Assembly: GCF_053078305.1 (NCBI RefSeq)
Contig: NZ_CP166879.1
Reading direction: 5' to 3' (one strand)
Length of the DNA: 64,000 nt
Part shown: positions 20,780 through 58,452 of the stretch, in pieces
Layout of the letters: each line of letters opens with the position of its first letter
Position numbering within the stretch: position 1 is the first letter of the stretch
Position numbers and translations under genes: made by a program
Notes under the pieces: model-generated
Seen by the model: only the letters and a program-made list of their open reading frames with translations
Told to the model about the DNA's origin: nothing
Database searches by the model: none

Positions 20780-22525
20780 CATCCTCCACGCCCTGAAGGA
20801 CGTGGATCCCTGCTACGTTCAGGCTGTCGCCTGAATCATTTCGGTGGGTTCCTGCTTCAACGGGCGGCCTGACTGCACCATCTCTCCACAGGCAAGAACG
20901 GCGTGCCCCGCCGCTAAAATGTTACGAGCGCCATTTACATCGGCGTTCGCTGTATATCCACATACCTGGCATCTGAATTTACTTTGTGACAGGCGGTTCT
21001 CTTTCGCTGTATGACCACAGTACGCGCAACGCTGGCTTGTATACGCTGGCGGAACAGCAAGCACCTGACCGCCACGCCAGAGCTGCTTGTACTCAAGCTG
21101 GCGGCGCATTTCATACCAGCCCTGATCCAGTATCGAACGGTTTAAACCTGATTTTGCCCGGACATTGCGCCCCGGCTGGCTGACCGTACCCGCTGCTGAC
21201 TTTGACATGTTGCTGACCTTCAAATCCTCAATGACTATCATTGCGTGGTTTTTGCTGACGGCCGTTGTGACTTTGTGAAGGTAGTCCCTGCGGATATTTG
21301 CGATACAGGAATGCAGTCGCTGTATTTTGCGTTTCTGCTTCTGCCAGTTGTTGCTGAATTTGACCTTGCGGCTTAACTGTCGCTGAAGTCTCGCCAGCGT
21401 CTTCTGGTTTTTCTGAAAACTGTTTACAGGCTCAAAGACTGTGCCATCTGACAGCGTGGCGAGTTTAGCCACGCCAGCATCCAGCCCGACCATTGATGCT
21501 GAAGGGTGAGCCGGAGTGGATACTTCACTTTCTGTCTGAATACTGATGTACCACTTACCGCAGGACTGGCTGACAGTGACATTTTTCACAACACCCGTGA
21601 CCTGACGGCTATTCCGGTAGCGCATCCAGCCCAGTTTCGGCAGAAAAATACGGCTGTTTTCCTGATCGAGCTTAACGCCCTGCGGGTAGCGGAATGCATC
21701 ATTCTGTCCCCGCTTTTTGAATCGGGGAAAAGCAGCCCGCTTCCGGAAGAAGTTTTTGTAAGCCCGCTCAAGGTCTTTCAGTGACTGTTGCAATGGCTGT
21801 GAGGGAGAATCTTTAAGCCATTGCGTTTCAGTGGCATTTTTCCACTCAACCAGCCAGGAAGCCATTTTCCCGTAAGGGATGTATTTATTACCGGCCTCAT
21901 GATTCTCATTCTGACGTGCCAGAGCACGATTGAAAACGAAACGACATGCGCCTGCGAAGCGCCTCATTTCACACTCCTGTTGACCACCTGGTCTTAACTG
22001 GAATTTAAATGCCTGTAATCGTTTCACAGGTCAAATGATACTTTGGTCTGTGAAAAAAGAAACCGATATCCGGCGTGGAAGGCATTGTGTTTTCCTGATG
22101 CATGTTCACCTGGTCTTTGTCACCAGATACCGACGCCAGATTTTTGACCATGACGCGACAGAAAAACTACGCACTTACTTTTCAAATGTATGTGCTTATT
22201 TTGAAGCTGAACTGGTTGAAATGGATGGCGAACCAGATCACGTCCATTTGTTAATTAACTAACCTCCCAAACTGGCGATATCCAGTCTGGTAAACAGCCT
22301 CAAAGGCGTATCGGGTAGGTTACTGCGACGAGATCGACCAGATATTGCAGTCAGGTATTACTACAAAGGCGTTTTGTGGAGTCCTGGCTATTTTGCCAGT
22401 AGCTGCGGAGGTGCGCCAATATCCGCCATCCGTCAATACATTGAACAACAGCAAACACCTGGTCAGGTGGAAAACCGCGCCTTATATCCCCGCCCTGAAG
22501 GATGGGGTTTTACGGCGCACCGGAT
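20780..22525 (-). mobile_element. IS200/IS605-family insertion sequence (IS609-like), tnpA and tnpB divergent
   Basis: Divergent tnpB (20819..22027) and tnpA (22035..); subterminal imperfect hairpins sharing loop ccctgaagga near both ends (20785..20806 and about 22485..22505); no terminal inverted repeats, as expected for this family; boundaries approximate. Confidence 0.75.
20819..22027 (-). CDS. tnpB: TnpB (IS605 OrfB-family RNA-guided nuclease, OMEGA effector)
   Basis: 402-aa ORF; Ruv[17 protein letters not shown], Ruv[11 protein letters not shown], zinc finger CAYCGH...CQVCGY, Ruv[14 protein letters not shown] all present; N-terminus [13 protein letters not shown] typical of TnpB. Confidence 0.9.
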
Positions 22526-33216: not shown

Positions 33217-33497
33217 TACCGTTGTCTCTCGTCCAGGTTTACTCCTGATAGAAAGTCATCGGCATTTGACGGTAATTACTTACGACTAAAAGCCTCTTTG
33301 CGTCACATTTTTACAACAATTATTGCAGAGAAGATTAATGCTATTGGAATGAAGAGAGTAACGAATGGCTAAACCGAATGACGAAAAATTCTGGAAAACA
33401 GCACGCAATTTCGTGAAGTGATTATTTCGTCCCTAAGGAAACCTCATAGGATGCCTGCGGGTGCCTGAGACTTTCTGTTTTCAGGCTAACCGGGAAT

Positions 33498-33546
33498 CAG
33501 AAAGACGAAGGCCCCGACCGATATTTCTATCAACCGAGGCCAACGA

Positions 33547-33558
<12 letters not shown>
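33498..33558 (-). ncRNA. sokB: SokB antisense RNA (type I antitoxin), approximate
   Basis: Minus-strand promoter: -35 TTGCCG, 17-bp spacer, -10 TAAGAT (plus coords 33588..33593 and 33565..33570); transcript would be antisense to mokB start and end at a hairpin followed by U-rich UUCGUCUUUCUG; ends not mapped. Confidence 0.5.
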
Positions 33559-33754
<196 letters not shown>

Positions 33755-33999: not shown

Positions 34000-34193
34000 A
34001 TAACCTCCATGGTTTATCGAATCTTATGTTCGATTTGAACGTTATACGCTGGTTTATTTTGATACCGTTGATGAGATCAAAGATCGGGTGAATTGATTAA
34101 AAATAAGCCAGATGGACGTATGGGCAAGGATTATGGTTTTATTTGTCATACAAATAAATATAATAGGCGCTTCCGATGTAGACCCGTATTCTT

Positions 34194-34234
34194 CGCCTGT
34201 ACCACGGGTCGGTTTTAGTACAGGCGTTTTCTTT
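34194..34234 (+). terminator. Hairpin plus T-tract in ydcA-cybB intergenic region (terminator-like, plus-strand polarity)
   Basis: 9-bp stem cgcctgtac/gtacaggcg with 15-nt loop followed by ttttcttt on plus strand; alternative stem gacccgt/acgggtc. Confidence 0.35.
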
Positions 34235-34243
34235 AAATATCCT

Positions 34244-34774
34244 TCAGGAACGTTTACGCGGCATCATGCGTAGAAGTGTGTTGTCCTTCCAGAAATAGTG
34301 GTGTGCCAGTGCAGCCGCAGCGTGCAAACCGATGACAAAATATCCCAGATTCGCCAGCGTTTCATGCCACGACTTTAAGCTATCTACCCGTTCGAAATTG
34401 GCCTCTGAAGCGTAAGGCATCGTCAAACCAAACGCAAACCACGGGTTGCCTCGGTTATACATCATCACCAAACCAATCACTGGCAGCGCAATAAACAGGA
34501 GATAAATCACCAAATGTCCCAAATGCGCCAGTCCCGTCATCATCGGTTTTGGCTTAGGTATAATCGGCGGGGTTGGGTATTTCAGCCTTAACAAAAGACG
34601 AACGACCATCAGCACGAGAATTGATATGCCGCAGGAAACATGAATCATGTTGATGAGTGGCCGATCGCTACGTGGGAAGAAACCCCGAAACTCCATTGCG
34701 CAATACGCTGCGATAACCAGCAAAAAGACCAGCCAGTGAATGCTGATTTGTAACCTTGAGTATTTATTTTCCAT
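34244..34774 (-). CDS. cybB: Cytochrome b561
   Basis: ORF 34244..34810 trimmed to MENKYSRLQISIHWLVFLL (176 aa); polytopic with conserved His. Confidence 0.9.
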   Translation of the reverse strand: MENKYSRLQISIHWLVFLLVIAAYCAMEFRGFFPRSDRPLINMIHVSCGISILVLMVVRLLLRLKYPTPPIIPKPKPMMTGLAHLGHLVIYLLFIALPVIGLVMMYNRGNPWFAFGLTMPYASEANFERVDSLKSWHETLANLGYFVIGLHAAAALAHHYFWKDNTLLRMMPRKRS

Positions 34775-34962
34775 AACATTTCCTGCTTTAACATAATTTT
34801 CCGTTAACATAACGGGCTTTTCTCAAAATTTCATTAAATATTGTTCACCCGTTTTCAGTACGTTACGTTTCACTGTAAGAATGGAGATTGCCCATCCCGC
34901 CATCCTGGTCTAAGCCTGGAAAGGATCAATTTTCATCCGAACGTTCCTGACAGGAGAAAACC

Positions 34963-35964
34963 ATGAGTAAAGTTGGTATTAACGGTTTTGGTCGTATCGG
35001 TCGACTGGTGTTGCGTCGATTACTTGAAGTCAAAAGCAACATAGACGTTGTCGCTATTAATGATCTCACTTCTCCAAAAATTCTCGCCTACCTGCTGAAA
35101 CATGATTCAAACTACGGACCGTTCCCCTGGAGCGTTGATTTTACGGAAGATTCACTTATCGTTAATGGGAAAAGTATCGCGGTTTACGCCGAAAAAGAGG
35201 CTAAAAATATTCCGTGGAAAGCGAAAGGTGCAGAAATCATTGTCGAATGTACTGGCTTTTATACCTCCGCCGAGAAATCGCAGGCGCATCTCGATGCTGG
35301 CGCGAAGAAGGTGTTGATTTCCGCCCCTGCCGGTGAAATGAAAACTATCGTTTATAACGTCAATGACGACACTCTGGATGGCAACGATACCATTGTTTCC
35401 GTGGCGTCATGCACCACTAACTGCCTTGCGCCGATGGCCAAAGCCTTGCATGACAGTTTCGGGATAGAAGTCGGCACGATGACGACCATTCATGCCTATA
35501 CTGGCACCCAGTCACTGGTGGATGGCCCGCGTGGTAAAGATTTACGTGCTTCACGCGCCGCGGCAGAAAATATCATTCCCCACACTACGGGCGCGGCAAA
35601 AGCCATTGGTCTGGTGATCCCGGAACTGAGCGGCAAACTGAAAGGTCATGCGCAACGCGTGCCGGTGAAAACAGGTTCGGTCACTGAACTGGTATCGATT
35701 CTCGGAAAAAAAGTGACTGCCGAAGAGGTGAATAACGCACTTAAACAAGCAACCACCAATAACGAGTCATTTGGTTATACCGATGAAGAAATAGTCTCTT
35801 CCGATATCATTGGCAGCCATTTCGGTTCGGTGTTTGATGCCACGCAAACGGAAATTACCGCCGTGGGCGATTTACAACTGGTGAAAACGGTCGCCTGGTA
35901 CGATAACGAATATGGCTTCGTCACGCAGCTTATTCGCACCCTCGAAAAATTCGCTAAACTCTGA
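34963..35964 (+). CDS. gapC: Glyceraldehyde-3-phosphate dehydrogenase (intact GapC)
   Basis: 333-aa uninterrupted ORF; NAD-binding [10 protein letters not shown]; active-site [10 protein letters not shown]. Confidence 0.92.
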
Positions 35965-35972
35965 CGCGCACA

Positions 35973-36000
35973 GGCGGAGGAAAAAACCTCCGCCTCTTTC
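35973..36000. terminator. Terminator between convergent gapC and aldA
   Basis: ggcggagg-aaaaaa-cctccgcc hairpin followed by tctttc. Confidence 0.6.
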
Positions 36001-36005
36001 ACTCA

Positions 36006-37445
36006 TTAAGACTGTAAATAAACCACCTGGGTCTGCAGATATTCATGCAGGCCATGTTTACCATCTGCGCCGCCAATACCGGATTTACGCCATCCGGCGT
36101 GGAAGCCTTGCATAGCTTCGAAGTTTTCACGGTTGATGTAAGTTTCACCAAACTTCAGCCCTTTAATGGCTTTCATCGCGACGTTCAGATTTTGGGTATA
36201 GATTGATGAGGTCAGGCCGTAATCACTGTCATTAGCCATTGAGATAGCATCTTCCAGCGTGTCAAATGCGACTACCGGCAGAACCGGGCCAAAGGTTTCC
36301 TCATGCATAATCGACATTTCCTGGCGAACATCCAGCAGCAATGTCGGCGGATAATAATATCCTTTCCCCTCTACCGCTTTGCCACCCAACGCCACTCTCG
36401 CCCCTTCTTCTACTGCGCGCGCCACTTTTTGCTCGACCCTTTCCAGCGCCGCGGCGTTAATCAACGGCCCCATCGCAATGTCGTTGCGTTCAGCGGGGTT
36501 ACCAAATTGAACCGCCTGCATCGCTTCACCCAGCCGATTGACGAACTGATCATAAATGCCTTTCTGTACATAAACACGTTCTGCACAGTTACACACTTGC
36601 CCACTATTAATGACGCGTGAATCAACGATGGCTTTGACTGCCAGTTCAAGATCGGCATCGTCCATTACGATAGCTGGTGCTTTACCCCCCAGTTCCAGGC
36701 ACACTTTGGTGATGTTTTTCGCCGCAGTCGCCATGATCTTCTCACCTGCAGAGACGCTGCCTGTCATACTGACCATTGCGACCTTTGGGTTACCCGCCAG
36801 TTCTTGCCCAACGGTTTCACCACGCCCCAGAACAAGGTTAAACACGCCGCGCGGAAGGCCTATTTCATCGACGATTTTGGCGAATGCAATCGCATTGTTT
36901 GGCGTAAATTCACTGGGTTTAATGACGATGGTATTACCGGTCAAAAGAGCGGGAGCCATTTTGCGGGCAATGAGGAAGAACGGGAAGTTCCACGGCAGAA
37001 TGCCGGTAGTCACACCAAGCGCACGTTTAAACAGAAGAATATTTTCTCCTGGACGATCGCTTTGAATAATCTCGCCCTCGTAACGCCGTGCCCACTCCGC
37101 CATGTAATCGATATAGTCGGCAGTAAAAGCCACTTCGACTTCAGCCAGCTGCTGGATCTTGCCCCCTTCTTCAACAATCAGCGCACTGATTTCACTGGCG
37201 CGTTCGCGGATCCCGGCGGAGATTTTGCGCAACCAACTGGCGCGTTCAATAGCAGGCAACGCTTCCCATTCTGGTTGTGCACGTTCTGCTGCATCGATTG
37301 CCTTACGGGCATCCTCGGCCTGACCATCGGGTATGCGGGAAATGACAGCCTCTGTAGCAGGGTTTACCACATCAATCCATGCGTCTCCACGCCAGGTAAC
37401 AAACTGTCCATCGATATACATAGGATGTTGAACGGGTACTGACAT
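36006..37445 (-). CDS. aldA: Lactaldehyde/glycolaldehyde dehydrogenase (NAD+)
   Basis: 479-aa ORF; ALDH motifs LELGGKAP and GQVCNCAER. Confidence 0.93.
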   Translation of the reverse strand: MSVPVQHPMYIDGQFVTWRGDAWIDVVNPATEAVISRIPDGQAEDARKAIDAAERAQPEWEALPAIERASWLRKISAGIRERASEISALIVEEGGKIQQLAEVEVAFTADYIDYMAEWARRYEGEIIQSDRPGENILLFKRALGVTTGILPWNFPFFLIARKMAPALLTGNTIVIKPSEFTPNNAIAFAKIVDEIGLPRGVFNLVLGRGETVGQELAGNPKVAMVSMTGSVSAGEKIMATAAKNITKVCLELGGKAPAIVMDDADLELAVKAIVDSRVINSGQVCNCAERVYVQKGIYDQFVNRLGEAMQAVQFGNPAERNDIAMGPLINAAALERVEQKVARAVEEGARVALGGKAVEGKGYYYPPTLLLDVRQEMSIMHEETFGPVLPVVAFDTLEDAISMANDSDYGLTSSIYTQNLNVAMKAIKGLKFGETYINRENFEAMQGFHAGWRKSGIGGADGKHGLHEYLQTQVVYLQS

Positions 37446-38442: not shown

Positions 38443-38655
38443 GGTTCCTCCTTATCGTTCCCTTAAGAATACTGCGTGAGATAATAGTGAGAAGCGGAGC
38501 ACTCTGAAAGGAGGATGTCGTATTTCCTTAACCGCCACTCCGCAAGCCTGACATATCTTTTAAGGAAATGCTGTAGATAAACATTATTCATCTTGCAGCA
38601 GAGAATTGTATTTTTCTGAATTCCTGAATTTTTGCCCTTACCGTTTTAGAATTAA

Positions 38656-38689
38656 TAAAAAACCCGGCGCTAAATGCTTACCGGGTTTT
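38656..38689 (-). terminator. Intrinsic terminator of hrpA
   Basis: Minus strand: aaacccgg...ccgggtttttt hairpin with T-run, about 25 bp after hrpA stop. Confidence 0.55.
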
Positions 38690-51672: not shown

Positions 51673-54600
51673 TTAGAACGTTTTCTTAAAGTTCAGCATC
51701 ACGCCTTTGTCGCTGATGCCGTCCTCTTTCCAGTGATACGCATCCAGATTCAGCGAACTTTCTTTGCTACTGTACTTCACGCCGACGCTCGCCAGGCTGT
51801 TGATACCGCCGCCCTTCTGACCGTCATCGACGTTAAAGTGCTGGCTGCCTGCCCCTGCAAGGCTTGCCGTGCGCTGGCTCTTGCTGTAGCTCAGGTTCGG
51901 CCCGCCTTCCAGCGTCGCATTCGCGCTCCAGCCGCCTTTCCCTGCGTAGTCCAGTTTCAGCCCGACGATGCTGTCCACCGCCGTTTCGCTGCCGCTGTTC
52001 ATGCTCAGGTTAAAGTCTCCGGCATTGCGCTCCTGATAGCCGCCTTCCAGCGTGTGACGCAGTTTCACTCCGGCGTACGGGGTGATTTTCAGCCCTTCGC
52101 GCGGTTCAAAGGTTTTTGCCCCTTCGCTGCGGAACTCCAGGTACTGCTGTTTCACATCCGTGTCTGCCGTTTTGCTGACGTCGCCGTAAGCCACCGAGCG
52201 GCTGCTGTCGAGGTTATGCACGTCATAGCGCAGGGCGTTGTTCCAGTTCATCCCGTTGTCGAAGAACATCTGGTGCTTCAGGCCGAAGAACTGGCTGTAA
52301 CCACCGGTTACGCCGTTGTCGCCCGCTTTCTGCGCACCGTCGCCATCCAGACGGGCGATACCGTACTCCAGACTCAGGCTCTGGCTTTCGCTCAGGTCAA
52401 CGGTTTTACGCAACGCCAGCATGTCGTACTCGGTGTTATTTCCGAGTTCAGCACGCGGGTCGCCTTTCGCCACCACGTTAAACGCCAGACCGTTGCCCAT
52501 CTTCGGCGCGGCGTCCGCCAGCATGCTGAAGCGGTTGCTCAGCACGCGCGCCTCGCGGAATACCGTGGTTGCCTGGCTGCCGCTCACCTGCTTCAGGGCG
52601 CTGTTCAGTTCGGCAGTAGTGCCGACGTTCAGGCTGGTATACAGCTCGTTGTTGGTGTAACCCGCATCCAGTGCCTTCGCCACATCGTTCACCGAAGCAT
52701 CGGTCGCCACATCGGTGTAGGCGTTTTTGCTCATGGTGACGTCAACGTTGCCGCTGGCATCGGTGCTGCCTTTGGCGGTCCACACCACAGACGTTGAGGT
52801 GATGGCATCGGCGTCGGTCAGGTTGCTGCCTTCCACCACGTTGTCGAAACTGACCGTGGTGTCTGCCGTACCGGCGGCGAAACCGGTGTTGATCCCGACA
52901 CCGTTCATGCTGGCGTTGTTGACCTTGAGCTTACCGGCGCTGCCGTCAACGTTGGTACCGACCACATAACCGTTGAGGTTGTTGCTACCGCTGCCAGTCG
53001 CATCTCCCCCTGTTGTTACGCCACCAGAACTGGTGTTCGGCACTTCCGGCAACGTGTAGTCGGTGTAATGCACTTCGGTATTATTACCGTTGTTGCCGTT
53101 CACCCCTTCCACGTTCACGCTGTCGCCCTGCTTAATCAACCCGGAACCGGTCACGCCATCGGCAATCACCACGGTACCGTTGTTAACGATATGGCCTTGT
53201 GTTCCCAACACACTGAATGCAAAGGAATCGTTAGCATAGATATTAATCGTGCCGTTGTTCTCGATCACCGCGTCTGCGGTAGCGTTGGCATCCAGTTGCA
53301 TACCAATTAACCCGGTATCGGTGGTACCTTCGGTGCCGAGATTGATAACGCCGTTGTTAACCAGTTGTGCGTTTTTATCACCTTCCATCGCCACGGCATT
53401 GTTGCCGCTGATGTTCATCACGCCATCGTTGAGGGCAACATAGTTGTTGTGGGTGAATTTAACTGCGCTGGCGTTGTCTTTATCGAAGTTAATCACCCCG
53501 CCATCCTGGTTCCACAGGAAGGCATCGCTTTCTGTCGCACCAGCGGTACTTACCGCCACAGTGACTTTCGCATCCACCACGCCCTTGTTAATAAACTGGC
53601 TGGCGCCGTCGTCATAGTGAATAGCGCCCGCGCCAAGTGCGGCATCCAGCGTCATTTCACCGGTGTTATATAACGTGGCGTTAGCATTGCTTCCCTGGAA
53701 GCGAATGGCGTTTTTACTGTTATCAAGGATGAGCTTGCCGCTGTTGTTGAACGTTGATTGGTCGTCAATATCCAGCGTCCCGGCATTGTTATTTTCATCC
53801 TGATAACCCATTTTCCAGGTCCCCGCGTTATTCACCACCGCAGAGTTATAGAGAATGGCACCTTTACGCGCCTCGCCGCCTGCAAGGTTATTGAATACCG
53901 CATCGCCCTGAGCGTTAACGCGCGCCGACGCAATACCGCTGTTATTCACCGTACCATCGTGAAGTTGTAAAGTTGACAGGGAACCGGTGTTATTAATTAC
54001 CGCGTTGCTGTTTTTCTCAATTTTTACGACGTCATTAAGCGTTCCGTTGTTATTGAAGGTTCCTCCTTCCAGAGTCACCGTGTTCAATACACCTTCATTG
54101 GTTAACGCACCGCCTTCATTCACGACGATGGCTGAGCTAATGGTTCCGCTCGACTCGTTAACCAGCGCACCATTTTCGAGTATCCTGATCGTTCCATTTT
54201 TAACAGCACCCGCACTGGTGACATCCCCGTTGATAATCGCACCTGACGATAATAATACGGTCTCACCCGCAGAACTTAATACATCGCCATCATCATATAA
54301 ATCGGCAATATAATTATCCGTTGGATTATATTCATCGGCCCCCTGGCAAACGCCAAAGGTACAAATTGTGCCATAGTTGATAATAAGCCCAGTGCCATCG
54401 TTATAGAATGCCTGACCATTTTCCGCGTTAATGTTGATTACGCCTGTCTGGTCATTAATGGCGGTGCCTTCGTGATAAACCGCCATGCCGACGAGTTTAT
54501 TCACACCGAGAGAATCGTTGTAATTTTCATTTTTCTCCAGGTTGATGGTTCCCTGGTTAATGACCGTGTTGGTATTACCATACGCCGCCATCCCCGCACC

Positions 54601-57528
54601 CGCGTTGTAGACGGTAATCACACCATTCTCGTGGTTGGTAGACGTCGCTTTGGTTAATGCTCCATAGTAAGCATCGGTTCCCGAAGCCATTCCCACACCG
54701 AAATCTTTCGCCGTGCTATTTGCGATGTTATTACGCAGCGATGTTTCATCATTTTCATCGACCCACAGCGTATCCAGGGTGATTTGCCCTTCGTTATCCG
54801 CGGTTGATTTATCGATAGCCAACATCCCCACGCTGCCACGACCATACATCTCAATAATGCCCGTTTCGCCGTTCAGAATGGATGACGAGTAGCTGGCAAG
54901 CATACCTGTCAAACCTAATGCTCTGTTATTGAAAGAGGTACCGTCAGACAAGTTCCACTCTGCCGGATAATTCAGCACGCTGTGCTGATTCATCATTTTG
55001 GTGGTCAAGGTGCCATTGTTAACGCCAATCCCCCCGTATTCAACATCGAAGACTTTTGGTGCCGGGTCGGTACCAAAATCGTACATCGCCAGGCCAATGG
55101 ATCCGTTATTGATGACCGTTGAATCTTTATTCCAGGCAGCCGCAAAACCGATATTTTTCAGTTCAACTTCACCGTTATTGGTCGCCTTCGCACCAGAATC
55201 AATACTAATGGTGGATAACGCTACACGATAATAATAAGTGAAAGAATCCACATCACTCATATCAAACGTTGCGTCAGCGCCAATCTCCAGCTCCGCGCCA
55301 TGGCTCAACTGAATGAGATTTTCGAACCCCAGCGGGAACTCGCCGCTGATGGTTGACTCACCATTCAGGTAGACCGAGGAATGCCCATCAACGTTAATAA
55401 GCGGTGTGTCTCCGATACCACGACGAGATGCGGCAGGTTTTGAGCCATCATCCATGACATTTTTTTCACCGACAAAATGAACACCGCCATTAAGCGTAAA
55501 GGTATTGTCATCGCCAGCAATAACAATACCCGCAATGTGTTCCTGAGCACCGTCGTAACTCGCATAGGAACGCGACGTGGTTTCACTATCAGCAACAACG
55601 GTTAACTGACCATCCAGCGTGACGTCGTTGTTGTCACCGCTGATATTTACCCCGGTTGAGGGATTAAAGAAGTAAGGCTGCGCATTATCGGCTTTCTGAT
55701 CTTTATCAACCAGAATACTGCCCGCTATTTCGATAGTATTACCATCACCCGAAACATTAACACCTGTCGCTTCTTGCCCTGTCACATTCAGCCCATAAGT
55801 CGACAGCGTCATGTTGTTATTATCGCCAGAGACATCAAGACCGGTGGAGAAATCCCCAACGTCTAACCCGCCCGCAAGTGAAATATTGGCTTTATCCCCT
55901 GCAACGCTGACACCGGTTCCGGCGTTGGTCGCGGTAATATCACCGACGTTAACAAATGTCGCATTATTACCGTCGATCTGAATGCCGATTGCATTTTCAC
56001 CTGTAGCGGCCTGGCCAACATTGAGGTCGCCCATGTTGATCACGCTGACGCCATCACCATCAAGCAGCATGCCAATAGAGTTATCTTCGATGACCGTAAT
56101 ATTACCTTTGTTGCTAACGAACGTATCATTGCCGTCAACGTCAATACCGTGCGCACCACCGCTTACGTATAAGTCGCCTTCCTGTTTGATGGTGGCACCG
56201 TCACCGACAATTTTCGAGCCAGTGGAATTCTCACCGTCAACGCTCATGGTACCTTGATTATCGACCCGCGCATTATCGCCATTGATAAGGCTACCCGTAC
56301 CACCATTGGTGATGGTCGAGTCGCCCGCAGTGTTCAGCGTAGCATTATCGCCATTGATGATTACTGCGGTACCGCCGTCAACTTCCGTCTCGCCGTTGTT
56401 ATTGATAGTGATATCGTCACCAGTAAGGATACCAACGACCGAACCCTCGCCGATGGCGGTCGTTTTACCGTCGTTGTTGAGGGTGATGTTGTCACCCTCA
56501 ACCGTCATGACAGTACCGCCATTCAGCGCCGTATTGCCGCCCTGATCGGTGATGATCGCATTACCAAAATCAATCGCAGTTCCGGTTGTGCCATCAACAA
56601 CGACACCGGCCTCTTTAGTGATATGGATGAGCCCATCATCGTCGTAGCTCCAGGTGATGCCACCTGCCGTATTTACGCCATCAAAGATGACGGTGTTGCT
56701 GTCGTCATGGACTGTCCAGCCCTTGACTATCGTCGTCAGGCCATCAGGCGCGGTTAAGGTGTAACTCCCATCGGCATTTTGGCTGTAGGTAAAGGTGGTT
56801 TCGCGAATTTTGACGGTTTTCGCGTCCTGATCCCAGGTTACGTCATTTTTATAGACGACAGGATCGTGTTTAACCGGGGTATCGCCACCATCGTCTGGCG
56901 GAACAGGCGTATCACCGCCGTCGTCTGGAACTGGCGTATCACCGCCATCATCTGGTGGAACCGGCGTATCACCGCCGTCATCTGGTGGAACCGGCGTATC
57001 ACCGCCGTCATCTGGCGGAACTGGCGTATCACCGCCGTCATCTGGCGGAACTGGCGTATCACCGCCGTCATCTGGCGGAACCGGCGTATCATCGCCGTCA
57101 TCTGGCGGAACTGGCGTATCACCGCCGTCATCTGGCGGAACTGGCGTATCACCGCCGTCATCTGGCGGAACCGGCGTATCACCGCCGTCGTCTGGCGGAA
57201 CAGGCGTATCACCGCCATCATCCGGAACTGGGGAGTTATTATGGTGGTGATTGTCATCGTCACTTAAGGTATATATAGCAATTCCCGTAGCTACTGCAGC
57301 AAGACCTGCAGCTGCCCATGGTAAAACTGCACTATCTTTATTTTCTCTGCACTCCGCGGATAAATTTTCTAGCTGCTCTTTGCTCAGGGAATGAATATTT
57401 GCCGGACATGTTATCTTACTGGACTTACGTGTTTTTTCGGTTGAGTCGGGTATTGAAGTATCCGCAGCCCATGTCTGGCTACTTAACGCCATGGCAACAC
57501 AAACAGACAATAATTTTTTCCTTTGCAT
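51673..57528 (-). CDS. ydbA: Giant AIDA-like autotransporter (type Va) YdbA, intact
   Basis: ORF 51673..57567; start set at ATG 57528 (MQRKKLLSVCVAMALSSQTWA signal peptide, SD aagga 8 nt upstream); Pro/Asp-rich repeats, long Gly/Asn/Thr-rich passenger, C-terminal beta-barrel ending ...LNFKKTF. Confidence 0.88.
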   Translation of the reverse strand: MQRKKLLSVCVAMALSSQTWAADTSIPDSTEKTRKSSKITCPANIHSLSKEQLENLSAECRENKDSAVLPWAAAGLAAVATGIAIYTLSDDDNHHHNNSPVPDDGGDTPVPPDDGGDTPVPPDDGGDTPVPPDDGGDTPVPPDDGDDTPVPPDDGGDTPVPPDDGGDTPVPPDDGGDTPVPPDDGGDTPVPPDDGGDTPVPDDGGDTPVPPDDGGDTPVKHDPVVYKNDVTWDQDAKTVKIRETTFTYSQNADGSYTLTAPDGLTTIVKGWTVHDDSNTVIFDGVNTAGGITWSYDDDGLIHITKEAGVVVDGTTGTAIDFGNAIITDQGGNTALNGGTVMTVEGDNITLNNDGKTTAIGEGSVVGILTGDDITINNNGETEVDGGTAVIINGDNATLNTAGDSTITNGGTGSLINGDNARVDNQGTMSVDGENSTGSKIVGDGATIKQEGDLYVSGGAHGIDVDGNDTFVSNKGNITVIEDNSIGMLLDGDGVSVINMGDLNVGQAATGENAIGIQIDGNNATFVNVGDITATNAGTGVSVAGDKANISLAGGLDVGDFSTGLDVSGDNNNMTLSTYGLNVTGQEATGVNVSGDGNTIEIAGSILVDKDQKADNAQPYFFNPSTGVNISGDNNDVTLDGQLTVVADSETTSRSYASYDGAQEHIAGIVIAGDDNTFTLNGGVHFVGEKNVMDDGSKPAASRRGIGDTPLINVDGHSSVYLNGESTISGEFPLGFENLIQLSHGAELEIGADATFDMSDVDSFTYYYRVALSTISIDSGAKATNNGEVELKNIGFAAAWNKDSTVINNGSIGLAMYDFGTDPAPKVFDVEYGGIGVNNGTLTTKMMNQHSVLNYPAEWNLSDGTSFNNRALGLTGMLASYSSSILNGETGIIEMYGRGSVGMLAIDKSTADNEGQITLDTLWVDENDETSLRNNIANSTAKDFGVGMASGTDAYYGALTKATSTNHENGVITVYNAGAGMAAYGNTNTVINQGTINLEKNENYNDSLGVNKLVGMAVYHEGTAINDQTGVININAENGQAFYNDGTGLIINYGTICTFGVCQGADEYNPTDNYIADLYDDGDVLSSAGETVLLSSGAIINGDVTSAGAVKNGTIRILENGALVNESSGTISSAIVVNEGGALTNEGVLNTVTLEGGTFNNNGTLNDVVKIEKNSNAVINNTGSLSTLQLHDGTVNNSGIASARVNAQGDAVFNNLAGGEARKGAILYNSAVVNNAGTWKMGYQDENNNAGTLDIDDQSTFNNSGKLILDNSKNAIRFQGSNANATLYNTGEMTLDAALGAGAIHYDDGASQFINKGVVDAKVTVAVSTAGATESDAFLWNQDGGVINFDKDNASAVKFTHNNYVALNDGVMNISGNNAVAMEGDKNAQLVNNGVINLGTEGTTDTGLIGMQLDANATADAVIENNGTINIYANDSFAFSVLGTQGHIVNNGTVVIADGVTGSGLIKQGDSVNVEGVNGNNGNNTEVHYTDYTLPEVPNTSSGGVTTGGDATGSGSNNLNGYVVGTNVDGSAGKLKVNNASMNGVGINTGFAAGTADTTVSFDNVVEGSNLTDADAITSTSVVWTAKGSTDASGNVDVTMSKNAYTDVATDASVNDVAKALDAGYTNNELYTSLNVGTTAELNSALKQVSGSQATTVFREARVLSNRFSMLADAAPKMGNGLAFNVVAKGDPRAELGNNTEYDMLALRKTVDLSESQSLSLEYGIARLDGDGAQKAGDNGVTGGYSQFFGLKHQMFFDNGMNWNNALRYDVHNLDSSRSVAYGDVSKTADTDVKQQYLEFRSEGAKTFEPREGLKITPYAGVKLRHTLEGGYQERNAGDFNLSMNSGSETAVDSIVGLKLDYAGKGGWSANATLEGGPNLSYSKSQRTASLAGAGSQHFNVDDGQKGGGINSLASVGVKYSSKESSLNLDAYHWKEDGISDKGVMLNFKKTF
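56877..57228. repeat. 27-bp coding tandem repeat, about 12 copies, encoding P(P)DDGGDTPV
   Basis: Near-identical 27-nt units (ccgccgtcatctggcggaaccggcgtatcac and variants) visible directly; one 24-nt unit and one G-to-D variant; generates artefactual ORFs on the opposite strand and other frames. Confidence 0.9.
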
Positions 57529-57935
57529 ATAAAATTCCTTAGATCTAGACCGTGCGTAACAAGCCATGCAGAATTTGAAGATAAATCGTAGTAAATATTC
57601 ATAGTGAAATAAGCAATAAAGAAATGCTTATATAATTCACAAAATCAATATTAAAATCAGGCAAGTAAAAGCATACAAAAAAACAGTTGATGGAATTATA
57701 TTCCACAAAAAACTCACTTCAATCTAAAAATTAACGACAAAAAACAAAAACACACTAATAATTCATTGACGCTGCATATATATTTTGTGATTACATATAT
57801 ATTGGTAATGATTTGTTATTTAAGGGAAGGATATATAAGGTTTTTGTAGAAATACCCACGGTAATTAAGCATGCTAACGTCAGTTTAAATACTGTAAAAG
57901 ATCATTAATAGATACATTTTGTAGCCAACTATAAT

Positions 57936-58262
57936 TTATTTGCGCAACCATTTACCATTAATTCCCTGAACATATTGCCCCGACTTCGCGCGAGCAACAA
58001 GCTTTTGTCCAGCCAGTTTGGCTATCTCTTTAGTGGATACATTATTTTGCTTTGCCAGTTGTTGGTAACTATGGTTACGAGCTTCATTAATATCTTTTAC
58101 TAATGCCTGTGTTTCGGCATCCGTTTGTAGCGCCACCAGGTAACCGTTAAGCGTTTCACCTACCCGCCCCTGACTTCTGGCTTCGTTCAGGGTTAAAGCC
58201 ATTGCACTGTCGCTCATCAGGCCAATGGCCCATACAGCTATGAGTAATGTTCTTTTCATCAT
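57936..58262 (-). CDS. ydbL: Periplasmic DUF1318 protein YdbL
   Basis: ORF 57936..58340 trimmed to MMKRTLLIAVWAIGLMSDSAMA (signal peptide); 108 aa. Confidence 0.82.
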   Translation of the reverse strand: MMKRTLLIAVWAIGLMSDSAMALTLNEARSQGRVGETLNGYLVALQTDAETQALVKDINEARNHSYQQLAKQNNVSTKEIAKLAGQKLVARAKSGQYVQGINGKWLRK

Positions 58263-58266
58263 CACC

Positions 58267-58452
58267 TCAAAATAGATCGCTACGGGTTTTGAGCAGGTCT
58301 TCAACGTCCTTATCCGCTTTAATGATGATTTCATGCTCAATTTTAACGTTCATATTAATGGTGATTGGCTCTTTCGGCGCAGCTACTTCAATGCGAGGCG
58401 TGCAACCAACCAACATAAAAGAGGACGCAAACGCGGCTATCACTATTTTCAT
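58267..58452 (-). CDS. ynbE: Lipoprotein YnbE
   Basis: 61-aa ORF; lipobox MLVGC; start overlaps ydbH stop (ATGA). Confidence 0.85.
   Translation of the reverse strand: MKIVIAAFASSFMLVGCTPRIEVAAPKEPITINMNVKIEHEIIIKADKDVEDLLKTRSDLF

Follow-up and report, generated by a model that had tools for sequence, protein, structure and literature searches.

The window, by which we mean the whole 64,000-nucleotide stretch of contig NZ_CP166879.1 (assembly GCF_053078305.1) that was analysed, carries an intact gapC gene. Judging by its sequence, this is very likely an ordinary functional Escherichia coli allele, encoding an NAD-dependent phosphorylating glyceraldehyde-3-phosphate dehydrogenase (GAPDH). An earlier note on this DNA had claimed that the reading frame is uninterrupted over 333 codons. 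The listing of open reading frames (ORFs) gives exactly this frame (positions 34963 to 35964, plus strand), and direct reading of the sequence confirmed a single ORF from ATG to TGA, coding for an intact type I NAD-dependent GAPDH. The ATG is preceded at 6 nucleotides by a Shine-Dalgarno sequence, AGGAG (34952 to 34956, plus strand; read from the sequence), which showed no variation in a five-strain alignment of the upstream region. Some database entries give gapC a longer product of 383 amino acids. We rejected this version for the window, because the upstream frame contains in-frame stops there, and the ORF of 333 amino acids stands.

The disruption of gapC in K-12 MG1655, which the earlier note had also put forward, was borne out by the reference annotation and by an alignment. 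In NC_000913.3, gapC (b4493; formerly gapC_1, b1417, and gapC_2, b1416) carries a pseudogene annotation over 1001 bp (1489713 to 1490713). When aligned with the window, the K-12 copy was not intact: 12 substitutions and a deletion of 1 bp separate the two genes (98.7% nucleotide identity), and these differences include two disabling lesions. Codon 39 (35077 to 35079, plus strand) is AAA (Lys) in the window and TAA (stop) in K-12. The run of seven adenines at Gly248-Lys249-Lys250 (35706 to 35712, plus strand) is reduced to six in K-12, a −1 frameshift that changes GGA AAA AAA GTG into GGA AAA AAG TGA, with an immediate stop codon. K-12 gapC also carries the substitution R18G. The window gene has none of these three changes, although the upstream region and Shine-Dalgarno sequence of the two are nearly identical.

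The history of these lesions can be read from the nearest intact allele found, that of strain 2 HS-C, which shows exactly three differences from K-12 gapC: C>G at nucleotide 52 (R18G), A>T at nucleotide 115 (K39stop), and the deleted A. There are no synonymous changes between the two. Each of the three derived changes in K-12 is damaging, with no synonymous one among them, a pattern that suggests a recent loss. The null allele of gapC found in K-12 and in its natural relatives combines R18G, K39stop, and the −1 frameshift, all of them derived. Metabolic engineers insert heterologous genes at the gapC site of K-12 (PMC11340173).

We then asked how common the K-12 lesions are in the species. A megablast search found gapC in 5417 of 5426 complete E. 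coli genomes, with a coverage of at least 80% in 5409. Lesion frequency was taken as the number of exact matches to K-12-specific sequences: the 61-mer with the TAA codon matched 1152 of the 5426 genomes and the 60-mer with the run of six adenines matched 1046. By this measure, the K-12 lesions are common to ~19 to 21% of complete E. coli genomes and about four fifths are without them. The openness of the frame was judged on 15 sampled alleles without the K-12 lesions, all of which had an open frame of 1002 bp, one of them with an ATA start. Evenly spaced sample rows of the lesion-carrying genomes (4.6 to 5.2 Mb) included isolates from dog, mink, pig, cattle, chicken, duck, wastewater, and patients, showing that the carriers are not solely laboratory strains. 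Two of them, the dog strain D4 and the mink strain 8GC from China, have gapC annotated as "frameshifted; internal stop"; over the 1001 positions of the K-12 pseudogene, D4 shows one difference and 8GC none. The K-12 null allele probably arose in nature, not through laboratory domestication, as a recent polymorphism that became fixed in a successful sub-lineage related to K-12. If this is true, gapC offers a clean natural experiment in which a metabolic gene tied to a particular niche, perhaps to survival outside the host, is being lost.

The same survey brought up some other unusual copies. The allele with the ATA start belongs to strain wlxctx60 (bear faeces), where the gene is nevertheless annotated as an intact coding sequence; to judge from this codon, it may be an independent loss or a case of lowered translation. 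In strain SCPM-O-B-7615 (raw milk), an IS1A element takes the place of four fifths of gapC, on its 3' side, and of the 3' end of aldA. Five of the matches in the 5426 genomes were on records labeled as plasmids, and some genomes had two copies.

In the window, gapC lies between cybB (cytochrome b561/superoxide oxidase; 34244 to 34774, minus strand), which is divergent, and aldA (aldehyde dehydrogenase A; 36006 to 37445, minus strand), which is convergent; both were identified by their ORFs and by synteny with K-12 and with the urinary isolate Combat11I9. Occupying the same slot between cybB and aldA as in K-12, and with 98.7% nucleotide identity to the K-12 gene, it is the orthologue of K-12 gapC. 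The divergent intergenic region between cybB and gapC (188 bp, 34775 to 34962) is the presumed site of the gapC promoter and has a mean column identity of 94% among five diverse strains, including K-12. A consensus promoter scan of positions 34700 to 36100 gave 2 promoter-like sites when 1.9 were expected, neither of them convincing for gapC, and upstream of the gene no sigma-70 consensus promoter rose above chance, with shuffled sequence as the control. Since such sites were no more numerous than in shuffled sequence, the position of the promoter is only inferred. Two RNA genes were identified with Rfam nearby: the sok antitoxin RNA of the hokB/sokB locus (33459 to 33610, plus strand; 109.7 bits) and the small RNA RydC (34170 to 34233, plus strand; 92.5 bits), the latter directly downstream of cybB, as in K-12.

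On the other side, RNA folding revealed that the space where gapC and aldA converge holds a GC-rich hairpin of 9 bp, GGCGGAGG...CCTCCGCC (35972 to 35995). Its folding energy is −18.5 kcal/mol (z = −4.18), and none of 200 shuffled sequences was equally stable. The hairpin has a weak U tract (UCUUUCACU) and was not called by a terminator pattern scan of positions 34700 to 36100, but it is probably a terminator common to both genes. On this reading, gapC would form a single-gene unit, divergent from cybB and ending at the hairpin that it shares with aldA.

What is known of its regulation comes mostly from K-12. A ChIP-seq peak of sigma-S RNA polymerase is located between gapC_1 and cybB (PMC4447067), gapC_1 is tabulated with genes that respond to RpoS or cAMP-CRP when carbon is limiting (PMC4512719), and CRP* up-regulates gapC (PMC2743635). 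Environment-specific expression of the gene, including in fresh water, is also reported in the literature. To judge from these publications, gapC is active chiefly when cells are not growing fast in the laboratory: in stationary phase (by sigma-S), under carbon limitation, and in fresh water. The most likely role of GapC is that of an auxiliary GAPDH for slow-growth, starvation, or extra-intestinal conditions, as suggested by its regulation in K-12 and by the expression in fresh water.

The sampled alleles indicate that the protein has been kept for its function. Compared with the window gene, their dN/dS ranged from 0.018 to 0.070, with dS up to 0.195, and 68 of the 76 segregating sites fell at the third codon position. 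The low dN/dS and the third-position bias imply strong purifying selection on the GapC protein. Orthologues with 87 to 97% identity are present in E. albertii, Citrobacter, Trabulsiella, Klebsiella oxytoca, Klebsiella grimontii, Kluyvera, Yokenella, and others.

These data bear on the possibility that gapC is intact yet effectively silent, its frame being kept by recent ancestry and not by use. A cryptic gene of this kind would agree with the loss of gapC in a lineage that makes up around a fifth of complete genomes and still thrives in many hosts, with the independent hits by IS1 truncation and by the change of ATG to ATA at the start codon, and with the failure to find a sigma-70 consensus promoter above chance. 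Nevertheless, dN/dS values of about 0.02 to 0.07 at this level of synonymous divergence, combined with the concentration of changes at third positions, require long-term selection on the protein. The retention of orthologues over several enterobacterial genera, the binding of sigma-S polymerase at the K-12 promoter, the regulation of the transcript, and the environment-specific expression reported in the literature also speak against silence, and we regard it as very unlikely. A functional gapC under selection accounts better for these observations. The suggestion of the earlier note that this strain may express a second GAPDH next to gapA gains indirect support from the good Shine-Dalgarno sequence, the conservation of the upstream region among strains, the purifying selection, and the catalytic activity of a protein identical at 332 of 333 residues.

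The identity of the product was assigned with curated protein models. GapC matched NCBIfam TIGR01534 (type I GAPDH) with 447.7 bits, for a curated cut-off of 367.2 (E = 2.4e−134), over residues 3 to 325 of the protein and positions 1 to 330 of the 330 of the profile. It also contains the Pfam domains Gp_dh_N (PF00044, 124 bits) and Gp_dh_C (PF02800, 195 bits). The gapC ORF is hence not a chance frame, since TIGR01534 and both Pfam GAPDH domains match it. The NAD-binding and catalytic cysteine motifs that the earlier note had pointed out were all found: GFGRIGR at residues 8 to 14, AIND with Asp34, and SCTTNC with Cys150. The codon of the catalytic Cys150, within the last of these motifs, is TGC (35410 to 35412, plus strand), and that of the catalytic His177, placed by reading the motifs of the protein, is CAT (35491 to 35493, plus strand). 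An acidic residue of the Asp34 type at the end of the second beta strand favours NAD in GAPDH structures. The residues of the phosphate sites are present as well, namely, Thr180 (in TIHAYT), Arg198 (in RASR), Thr209-Gly210 (in TTGAAKA, residues 208 to 214), and Arg232 (in AQRVP). The functional roles given here to the cofactor and phosphate-site residues follow what is generally established for GAPDH structures, together with published work on the E. coli enzyme (PMC8615399).

More specific models rejected the protein. GapC scored 302.8 bits against the GapA equivalog (NF011954/PRK15425), which has a cut-off of 662; 277.5 and 280 bits against the two Epd models (TIGR01532 and NF010058, with cut-offs of 530.55 and 539 bits, respectively); and 306.5 bits against the ArsJ-associated GAPDH (NF033735, cut-off of 450 bits). 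There is no arsJ adjoining the gene, whose neighbours are cybB and aldA. An identity of GapC as Epd, as ArsJ-associated GAPDH, or as GapA is thus ruled out by the NCBIfam cut-offs.

GapC shares with the housekeeping enzyme GapA (b1779) the fold, the catalytic cysteine and histidine, and an NAD-dependent phosphorylating chemistry, but the two are only 47% identical, are encoded at separate loci, and, according to the literature, are regulated differently. The next-best matches of GapC in the PDB, after the E. coli entries, were GAPDHs of the Firmicute type: Staphylococcus aureus GapC1 (3K73), the Streptococcus enzymes 4QX6 and 5JYA, and the Bacillus stearothermophilus enzyme 1GD1. These matches were full length (E values of 1e−144 to 1e−91), but they come from other organisms and are clearly farther from GapC than the enterobacterial orthologues are. 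Their position as next-best matches fits a gapC of the "typical bacterial" type. Within Enterobacteriaceae, GapC is the second type I GAPDH, standing beside GapA, and the one of the "typical bacterial" kind.

For a nearly identical protein, the activity has been measured directly. The chains of PDB entries 7C5F, 7C5G to 7C5R, and 7C7K are identical to the window GapC at 332 of 333 residues, with N68D as the sole difference. They represent EcGAPDH1, the crystallised GapC of E. coli, which has C150 and H177 as in the window protein but carries Asp68 where the latter has Asn68; its first description is said to be that of Zhang et al. in 2020. The name EcGAPDH1 was given to this near-identical enzyme together with an apparent Km for glyceraldehyde-3-phosphate (G3P) of 0.73 mM and a very high turnover (PMC8615399), values that refer to the Asp68 allele only. 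The assays used G3P, NAD+, and phosphate (PMC8615399). The C150A mutant had no activity, while the activities of C150S and H177A were ~38,000-fold and ~8,000-fold lower, respectively, and the crystals captured the enzyme in complex with NAD, G3P, the thioacyl intermediate, and 1,3-bisphosphoglycerate (1,3-BPG) (PMC8615399). With kinetics, mutants, and crystal complexes published for EcGAPDH1, the mechanism is experimentally established for a protein essentially identical to the window GapC.

It is most improbable that GapC is instead a specialised, nonglycolytic paralogue, be it Epd-like, ArsJ-associated, NADP-dependent, or nonphosphorylating: E. coli does already have a GAPDH-like protein with a different substrate in Epd, and GapC gives sub-threshold matches to the Epd and ArsJ-associated models, but TIGR01534 alone passes while the Epd, ArsJ-associated, and GapA scores stay far under their curated cut-offs, the NAD-favouring Asp34 is present and an adjoining arsJ is not, and the enzyme that differs from it at one residue was active on G3P in assays containing NAD+ and phosphate, and its crystals include complexes with NAD, G3P, and 1,3-BPG. 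As a phosphorylating NAD-dependent GAPDH, the window GapC would act through an attack of Cys150 on G3P, with His177 assisting. A hydride would be transferred to NAD+, and phosphate would then cleave the thioacyl intermediate to release 1,3-BPG.

The single residue that separates the window protein from EcGAPDH1, Asn68, is shared with Combat11I9, and Asp is found at this position in all the other sampled alleles. GapA likewise has Asn at the aligned position, which makes an effect of Asn68 on the function of GapC unlikely as far as can be predicted from such a comparison. The gapC of Combat11I9 (WP_000048684.1) is 99.9% identical to that of the window at the nucleotide level and has the same protein, locus, and synteny. 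The window is collinear with the genome of this isolate apart from an insert of ~1.8 kb, present only in Combat11I9 of the two. This insert lies between hrpA and ydcF (corresponding to positions 38517 to 38656 of the window), carries four hypothetical genes, one of them frameshifted, and is absent from both the window and K-12.

The composition of gapC (48.3% GC; 49.7% GC at third codon positions) is close to that of the window (49.7% GC) and similar to that of the neighbouring genes. We considered and rejected a horizontal-transfer island, since the GC content is ordinary for the window and orthologues are spread through Enterobacteriaceae. One review terms gapC laterally acquired; any such transfer would be ancient.

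Much of this was already known: the gapC gene itself, its lesions in K-12, the activity of the enzyme, and its structure, and an intact gapC is the normal state in E. coli. RefSeq routinely labels the intact gene "type I glyceraldehyde-3-phosphate dehydrogenase." Espinosa-Urgel and Kolter reportedly showed in 1998, according to later summaries, that environmental isolates have an intact gapC and that laboratory strains carry mutations in it. A further paper (PMC1796617) names Espinosa-Urgel and Kolter, Mol Microbiol 1998, 28:325, as the primary reference. The small addition made here is that the K-12 null allele is probably a natural lineage polymorphism and occurs in about one in five complete genomes; its spread in natural isolates refines the common statement that laboratory strains gained the mutations. 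The intact gene being the norm in E. coli and the K-12 pseudogene the exception, the importance of the window allele lies mostly in correct annotation. Metabolic models based on K-12, and expectations drawn from gapA knockouts, may not transfer to wild strains with a second active GAPDH.

Other differences from K-12 and Combat11I9 were observed in the window. The homologue of ydbA, encoding an autotransporter, is an intact ORF of 1964 amino acids (51673 to 57567, minus strand), with tandem repeats of ~30 nucleotides at positions 56872 to 57225. In K-12, ydbA (b4492) is a pseudogene in three fragments, split by IS2D and IS30C, which makes it the second gene of the window that is intact here and broken in K-12. 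The paa cluster (paaK, paaX, and paaY) is directly upstream of ydbA in K-12 and is absent from this part of the window, as it is from the corresponding place in Combat11I9; feaRB and tynA are presumably also upstream of ydbA in K-12. In the window, the gap of ~880 bp between ydbA and ydbH (57568 to 58448) is filled by ydbL and ynbE. An insQ/TnpB-like ORF of the IS200/IS605 family is uninterrupted over 402 amino acids (20819 to 22027, minus strand), and the annotation of Combat11I9 flags internal stops in both tnpA and insQ.
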